314 nt of DNA from Escherichia coli (GTDB lineage Bacteria > Pseudomonadota > Gammaproteobacteria > Enterobacterales > Enterobacteriaceae). Under the pieces are notes generated by a model. That model had not been told where the DNA came from and made no database searches. It was given only the letters and a program-made list of their open reading frames with translations. Position numbers and translations under genes: made by a program. Shown one piece after another: positions 1 to 313 of the stretch (its first letter is position 1; every line of letters starts with the position of its first letter). The DNA lies in NCBI RefSeq assembly GCF_003334385.1, contig NZ_QOWN01000207.1; one strand, 5' to 3'.

Positions 1-313
1 AGAGAGCGTAGGCCAGTTCGTCATCCAGTGTTTTCCATGTCTGCTTGTATTCGCGATGAATGGCAGCAATGACCGGGTTGATTTTTCCTGTTGAATTTTC
101 AGTGTGCTGTTGATTGGCTCTGGCGCGGGCGAGATCAACAACAGACGTGTATTTTCCGGCTTCCTTGCGTTCACCTTCGCGACGTTTTTTCCAGATGCGC
201 ATCTCTGCCTGAATTTCGGGCCATTTGGCACCAGGCTTACATTTATGCTTAACCCACCCGATGGCATGCAGCTTAAGCTCCGGATACATGGCGTTAACTT
301 CTGGCATTTTCAT
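1..313 (-). CDS. Hypothetical protein, partial (N-terminal 104 codons; C-terminus beyond the window start). Hydrophilic with a basic Lys/Arg cluster; function not recognised.
   Basis: Reverse-complement translation from the ATG at + 311-313 runs 104 sense codons to + 2 with no stop, leaving + 1 as the first base of the next codon. The other two minus-strand frames stop within the first few codons. Codon usage favours CTG, CCG, GCC, CGC, AAA and GAA, typical of enterobacterial genes. Amino-acid composition is protein-like and mixed charged/hydrophobic. The true start is uncertain because only one base lies upstream of the ATG inside the window, so no Shine-Dalgarno can be checked and the frame could extend further upstream. 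Confidence 0.8.
   Translation of the reverse strand, partial: MKMPEVNAMYPELKLHAIGWVKHKCKPGAKWPEIQAEMRIWKKRREGERKEAGKYTSVVDLARARANQQHTENSTGKINPVIAAIHREYKQTWKTLDDELAYAL

Follow-up and report, generated by a model that had tools for sequence, protein, structure and literature searches.

An internal fragment of a Qin-type lambdoid prophage exonuclease gene, and the tryptophan, histidine and cysteine residues of its N-terminal module

The Window and Its Gene

The DNA examined here (the window) is the whole 314 nucleotide (nt) stretch from Escherichia coli contig NZ_QOWN01000207.1. Judged by its sequence, it belongs to a gene that encodes an exonuclease of Qin / CP-933P-type lambdoid prophages and that corresponds, as an intact orthologue, to ydfE, a pseudogene in K-12. 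An earlier note on the window had pointed to roughly periodic tryptophans and a His/His/Cys patch in the encoded peptide, and had offered chance, a helical aromatic stripe, or a metal or nucleic-acid contact site as explanations. The coding feature that carries these residues is:

2..313, minus strand: internal coding fragment, residues 155-258 of an 823 amino acid (aa) prophage exonuclease (open frame, identity, phrog_2082, PF27432)

The minus-strand frame at window:1-313 is open over all 104 codons, encodes MKMPEVNAMYPELKLHAIGWVKHKCKPGAKWPEIQAEMRIWKKRREGERKEAGKYTSVVDLARARANQQHTENSTGKINPVIAAIHREYKQTWKTLDDELAYAL, and is the sole frame open throughout the window, with stops present in both of the other minus-strand frames. 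Translation places tryptophans at residues 20, 31, 41 and 93 of the window peptide, histidines at 16, 23, 70 and 86, and a single cysteine at 25, in agreement with the positions given in the earlier note. The motif LHAIGWVKHKC was also confirmed, and Lys/Arg-rich stretches (KHKCKPGAK and WKKRREGERK) lie near the patch. The span of 35-256 that had been assigned to these features is indeed bounded by the codons of W93 (35-37) and W20 (254-256), but the codon for H16 (266-268) falls just outside it. Two plus-strand open reading frames (ORFs), at 91..252 and 114..212, both with TTG starts, were rejected as spurious, being antisense to a well-supported coding sequence (CDS) and having no family match.

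The window peptide is identical at 104/104 positions to residues 155-258 of the 823-aa protein encoded by phage mEp460_ev081 (CDS at L002:5540-8011), and the window frame is in register with that 823-codon CDS. The methionine first taken as M1 (window 311-313) is the internal Met155, and the placement of the patch in an 'N-terminal half' was an artefact of the window, as the frame runs on upstream and 154 codons precede it. The upstream ORF extends through these 154 codons (L002:5540-6001) to an ATG at L002:5540, which has a plausible ribosome-binding site GAGGTAAAACAAAATG. Adding 154 to the window numbering gives the residues of interest as H170, W174, H177, C179, W185, W195 and W247.

The phrog_2082 profile ('exonuclease') matches the window at positions 155-258 of 823 (E=2e-74), phrog_5943 matches the window peptide (E=4.8e-58), and the Pfam families PF27430 (YdfE_N) and PF27432 (YdfE_C) are precomputed on proteins that are 99% identical to the window region, such as P0001. 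By these profile assignments, the window lies in YdfE_C and runs into the start of a region shared with RecE. The NCBIfam scan of the window peptide alone returned no family, and an Rfam scan of both strands of the window gave no match at E up to 1.

Conservation of the Tryptophan, Histidine and Cysteine Positions

A phmmer search of residues 1-360 against 1.84 billion cluster representatives returned 177 matches. Conservation was scored in 37 non-fragmentary 50%-identity cluster representatives whose sequences span 60% or more of the window region, with identities from 17 to 98%. The outcome for each position (window/full-length numbering) was as follows:

W20/W174 (254..256, minus strand): kept in 12/37, otherwise Ala (8), Asp (5) or Tyr (4); close relatives only
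W31/W185: kept in 26/37, with the adjacent P186 kept in 32/37
W41/W195: kept in 28/37
W93/W247: kept in 4/27 ungapped, otherwise Leu (8), Tyr (6) or Phe (5)
H16/H170: kept in 6/37, otherwise Glu (10) or Gln (6)
H23/H177: kept in 5/37
C25/C179 (239..241, minus strand): helix C-cap, with Cys (12), Phe (8), Thr (4), Trp (3) or Val (2) among the 37; a hydrophobic position in the family

The alignment check that had been proposed for the first three tryptophans bears out W31 and W41 but not W20. W185-P186 and W195 persist even where the identity of a homologue drops to 20-30% and its catalytic domain is a different one, and two MAFFT alignments made independently place W195 among the only columns with conservation of 90% or more. 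R49/R203 is kept in 27/37. Further along, a T-L-D-x-E-(I/V)-A-x-A-L motif is conserved in the predicted helix at residues 247-257, and detectable homology to RecE begins there.

To gauge the spacing of the tryptophans, the 104-aa peptide was shuffled. In 7% of trials (counting Trp alone) a pair of consecutive Trp gaps came out nearly equal and no longer than 15 residues, three Trp fell within 22 residues in 31%, and in the real window Ile, Leu and Asn are spaced likewise. With p~0.07 for Trp alone, and several residue types showing the same pattern, the 11/10 spacing is within chance.

The same shuffles and alignments bear on the suggestion that metal is bound at H170-x6-H177-x-C179, possibly with the help of a ligand elsewhere in the protein. 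In favour of this, the three residues lie near one another in the chain, an i/i+7 spacing puts H170 and H177 on one face of the helix, the 12 most closely related cluster representatives keep the Cys, and other Cys and His residues occur elsewhere in the full protein. However, the counts listed above are low for all three residues, with C179 mostly replaced by Phe, Thr, Trp or Val, and the positions are occupied by E/R/L in a 60-63%-identical allele and by K/K/F in RecE. H16 is already Leu in P0003, which is 83% identical over the window, and Phe in P0057. At least two His and one Cys within 10 residues were found in 9.8% of shuffles, so that such clustering is expected by chance in about one shuffle in ten, and no set of three to four ligands was conserved across homologues. 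The earlier note had itself named lack of conservation among homologues as what would speak against the idea, and on that ground the metal site is refuted. Further downstream ligands of the kind it wished to see do exist (C551, C554, C562 and C565), but they belong to a separate CxxC-x7-CxxC knuckle that supplies its own four ligands, about 370 residues away. Its opinion that the window holds no classical zinc finger was correct, and the patch is, on these alignments, very unlikely to bind metal.

Predicted Structure of the Window Region

AlphaFold2 (AF2), run on a 40-sequence alignment of residues 1-360, gave a mean predicted local distance difference test score (pLDDT) of 89.3, and 96-98 over residues 151-200. 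The predicted elements within the window are:

242..283, minus strand: predicted helix, residues 165-178 (window 11-24), pLDDT 96-97; H170, W174 and H177 on the variable face, I172 and V175 on the hydrophobic face
158..223, minus strand: predicted helix, residues 185-206 (window 31-52), pLDDT 96-98 to residue 200; K-W-P-(E/D) at the N-cap
38..157, minus strand: poorly conserved linker, residues 207-246 (window 53-92), predicted with low confidence and gapped or variable in homologues
5..37, minus strand: predicted helix, residues 247-257 (window 93-103), pLDDT 94-97; starts with W93/W247

A Pro/Gly loop (residues 179-184) separates the first two helices in the AF2 model, and the pLDDT values of the residue blocks spanning 201-240 are 71, 62, 46 and 54. 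Helix 165-178 holds W174 and helix 185-206 holds both W185 and W195, so the 11/10 spacing spans two helices. On the wheel of helix 185-206, W185 is at 0, I188 at 300, M192 at 340 and W195 at 280 degrees, with the hydrophobic moment pointing to 319 degrees, which is also the conserved face. On that of helix 165-178, H170 (140 degrees), W174 (180 degrees) and H177 (120 degrees) fall in low-information columns, opposite to the hydrophobic moment at 299 degrees.

The helical aromatic stripe of the earlier note is preserved in part, as W185 and W195 share one hydrophobic, conserved face, but W174 lies on the variable face of another helix and W247 is not part of the stripe. The four tryptophans are not arranged on one face of a single helix, conserved and spaced beyond chance; W185 and W195 alone share a face. 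The three- or four-fold periodicity is coincidental, given that W174 belongs to a different helix and is, like W247, rarely kept.

Allelic Variation within the Window

An E. coli / E. albertii-type allele (P0026, P0030, P0034 and P0054), 60-63% identical to the window region, is the one that has E/R/L at the His/His/Cys positions, and at positions 174, 185, 195 and 247, where the window peptide has Trp, it carries D, W, R and W. In this allele, a cassette of the form ERQxExINDARRDLKPTAKWPDVQAYFLxRKKRxE replaces window residues ~13-47, while the flanks are ~85-100% identical, which has the look of a mosaic produced by intragenic recombination.

Two in-frame deletion alleles were also seen. P0038 lacks ~28 residues (window 4-31), which removes H16, W20, H23, C25 and W31, and P0017 lacks ~41 residues (window 45-85), a segment that matches the low-pLDDT linker and takes in most of it. 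Each deletion has its junction at a short motif that is repeated in peptide or DNA (..MK.PE / KWPE.. and ..KKRRE / IHRE..), a sign that slippage or recombination may have occurred from one repeat to the other.

Architecture of the Full-Length Protein

The C-terminus of the 823-aa protein is an Rv2179c-like 3'-5' (DEDD) exonuclease domain (PF16473, residues 642-813; Pfam-A, E=1.5e-66). When the full protein was used to search PDB sequences, the C-terminal DEDD domain alone found matches (8kel and 8ken; E~1e-5) and nothing matched the window region, and a Foldseek search against the BFVD viral models gave no match at E<=0.001. In these two collections, the helical subdomain encoded by the window is without a recognisable solved relative.

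Among 31 diverged full-length homologues that share the N-terminal module, Exonuc_VIII (PF06630) is present in six, DUF3799 (PDDEXK-like) in three and an Rv2179c-like domain in two, and these differing nuclease domains indicate that the module is an accessory unit placed on interchangeable nucleases. The protein is itself a mosaic, with a RecE-like N-terminal and middle scaffold and a DEDD domain in place of the PD-(D/E)XK 5'-3' nuclease; some copies of this DEDD-type gene are still labelled 'exonuclease VIII' in databases.

The knuckle formed by C551, C554, C562 and C565 gives a weak DZR match. Located outside the window, it is embedded in a linker of low complexity, rich in Gln, Glu and Pro, that directly precedes the catalytic domain, and a comparison of residues 551-565 (CTACGQSGGGNCPDCG) with the aligned sequence of K-12 RecE (ACNACGQTGGDNCPDCG) shows that the zinc-ribbon-like arrangement is conserved in both.

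Distribution, Gene Context and Inactivation

A megablast search with the 314 nt returned 100% identity in many E. coli chromosomes. The count over complete genomes is 6709 places, spread over 3946 of the 5426, and a single genome can hold as many as six copies. Records of E. coli temperate phages (mEp460_ev081, Tritos, Evi, HannyBb and others) match the window at 97-99.7%, and the corresponding CDS are always annotated as 'exonuclease' or 'exodeoxyribonuclease VIII'. A tblastn search of the phage collection with residues 100-260 found the same 17 E. coli phages and no wider taxa.

The gene order dicB-ydfD-exonuclease-xis-int is found in O157:H7, in mEp460_ev081 and in the Qin prophage of K-12, corresponding to the early-left position of a lambdoid prophage, with kil/dicB-type genes on one side and xis-int on the other, and the same layout surrounds the distant homologues P0114 and P0138. 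In the case of P0138, which is 31% identical (L007:6145-6714), a Sipho_Gp157 (PF05565) gene lies downstream, in overlap with the exonuclease gene and ahead of xis-int. The E. coli copies have nothing between the exonuclease gene and xis-int, so the downstream gene content is lineage-dependent.

The gene has been inactivated time and again: IS2 truncates ydfE in K-12 Qin (L003:4079-5549), and IS1203 splits the gene in O157:H7 TW14359 (L001:5540-9324), ~360 nt downstream of the window. Many of the 'proteins' in databases (P0079, P0086, P0088, P0069, P0095 and others) are frameshifted translations that continue into another minus-strand frame of this sequence. In the literature, ydfE receives incidental mentions only.

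Interpretation and Alternative Explanations

Taken as a whole, the explanation we hold with good confidence is that the window encodes a fragment of a non-catalytic N-terminal module in which W185 and W195 are structural residues, the Trp spacing is coincidental and there is no metal site. The window would make up the second half of this module (YdfE_N plus YdfE_C), which phages appear to join to interchangeable nuclease domains, an Rv2179c-like DEDD 3'-5' domain here and a PD-(D/E)XK 5'-3' domain in RecE. W185 and W195, together with I188 and M192, would form the hydrophobic face of one amphipathic helix with K-W-P-E at its N-terminus, and their role is most likely the structural packing of the helical subdomain, as we infer from their conservation, the substitution pattern and the helix geometry. 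W174, H170 and H177 would be lineage-specific residues on the variable face of the preceding helix, C179 would simply occupy a hydrophobic position of the family, and W247 would stand at the head of the next conserved helix, where the family has aromatic or aliphatic residues.

Several points weigh against this explanation. The AF2 predicted template modelling score (pTM) is 0.48, which leaves the packing between domains uncertain. The Arg at W195 in the natural E. albertii-type allele means that this tryptophan is not indispensable, and W195R may reflect a cassette brought in by recombination or a gene in decay. W185 and W195 are only presumed to be buried, and such a face, conserved and hydrophobic, might serve as a protein-protein interface instead. 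Lastly, the N-terminal module is without an assigned function, like the N-terminal region of RecE (PMC11611040).

One alternative takes W174, H170 and H177 to be a lineage-specific, exposed patch of aromatic and imidazole side chains that contacts nucleic acid or a partner, with the W185/W195 face also serving as an interaction surface. It draws on the grouping of these three residues on the non-hydrophobic face of helix 165-178 and on the Lys/Arg-rich surroundings noted above, and also on the nature of the protein, a nuclease, and the report that the N-terminal region of RecE adds linear-linear activity (PMC11611040). We regard it as unlikely. A broader speculation, to which we also give little weight, is that YdfE_N/YdfE_C, marked by its near-invariant W195 and its K-W-P-E helix cap, is a portable targeting or partner-binding module, fused to PD-(D/E)XK, DEDD or DUF3799 nucleases, whose Trp face is an interaction surface for a DNA end, a host protein or an annealase. 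If this were true, the Trp face would offer a way to approach the long-standing puzzle of the RecE N-terminal region.

It is highly improbable that all of these features are the chance composition of a decaying prophage pseudogene in which no residue is constrained. Disruption is indeed frequent, by IS1203 in O157:H7 and by IS2 in K-12 ydfE, there are many frameshifted fragments besides the in-frame deletion alleles, and the shuffle statistics are unremarkable, but the retention of W185-P186 and W195 at 20-30% identity, across different catalytic domains, largely refutes this explanation, and intact 823-aa copies are present in phage genome records. A metal site at H170, H177 and C179 is, on the counts given earlier, scarcely credible.

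The finding is an ordinary one, the domain being catalogued by both Pfam and PHROGs, and it matters little in itself. Its host gene is among the commonest of E. coli prophage genes. W185-P186 and W195 are the best-conserved landmarks of an accessory module common to RecE-type and DEDD-type exonucleases. They would be sensible first targets for mutagenesis in asking why full-length RecE differs from its nuclease domain alone.

Comparison with Known Systems

The resemblance of the window to classical Cys/His zinc motifs consists of two His and one Cys within 10 residues. It differs from them in offering only three candidate ligands, none of which is conserved, and the zinc-ribbon-like C551/C554/C562/C565 lies outside the window.

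The closest named relative is YdfE, the product of K-12 Qin pseudogene b1577 (Pfam YdfE_N plus YdfE_C; PHROG 2082), whose gene occupies the same position (dicB-ydfD-ydfE-...-int). P0111, a 527-aa cluster representative, is 94% identical to the 823-aa protein over residues 1-356. K-12 ydfE is cut short by IS2; in the family of the window gene, by contrast, there are intact copies of 823 aa that end in a DEDD exonuclease domain.

In the comparison with RecE (exodeoxyribonuclease VIII) of the K-12 Rac prophage, residues 262-625, downstream of the window, align with RecE 278-591 at 38% identity (BLASTP E=6e-60), including the knuckle. The two proteins differ at the C-terminus, as the RecE nuclease family PF06630 (PD-(D/E)XK 5'-3') has no match in the 823-aa protein, which ends in PF16473 instead, and the RecE equivalog NF007259 matches residues 245-626 only, scoring 274.6 bits, below the curated cut-off of 1269. 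The gene neighborhood also differs, since in mEp460_ev081 xis and int are directly next to the exonuclease gene and no recT-like gene follows it, unlike recE. K-12 RecE has Asp, Leu and Tyr at the positions of W174, W185 and W195, and Lys, Lys and Phe at those of H170, H177 and C179, and its PDB structure covers the C-terminal domain only. Profile-profile alignment with hhalign pairs columns 171-277 (from about residue 169) with K-12 RecE 184-299, at a probability of 97.3% (E=2.6e-11). On this evidence, the window region is distantly homologous to the N-terminal region of RecE, from which full-length RecE gains activity on linear-linear substrates (PMC11611040).
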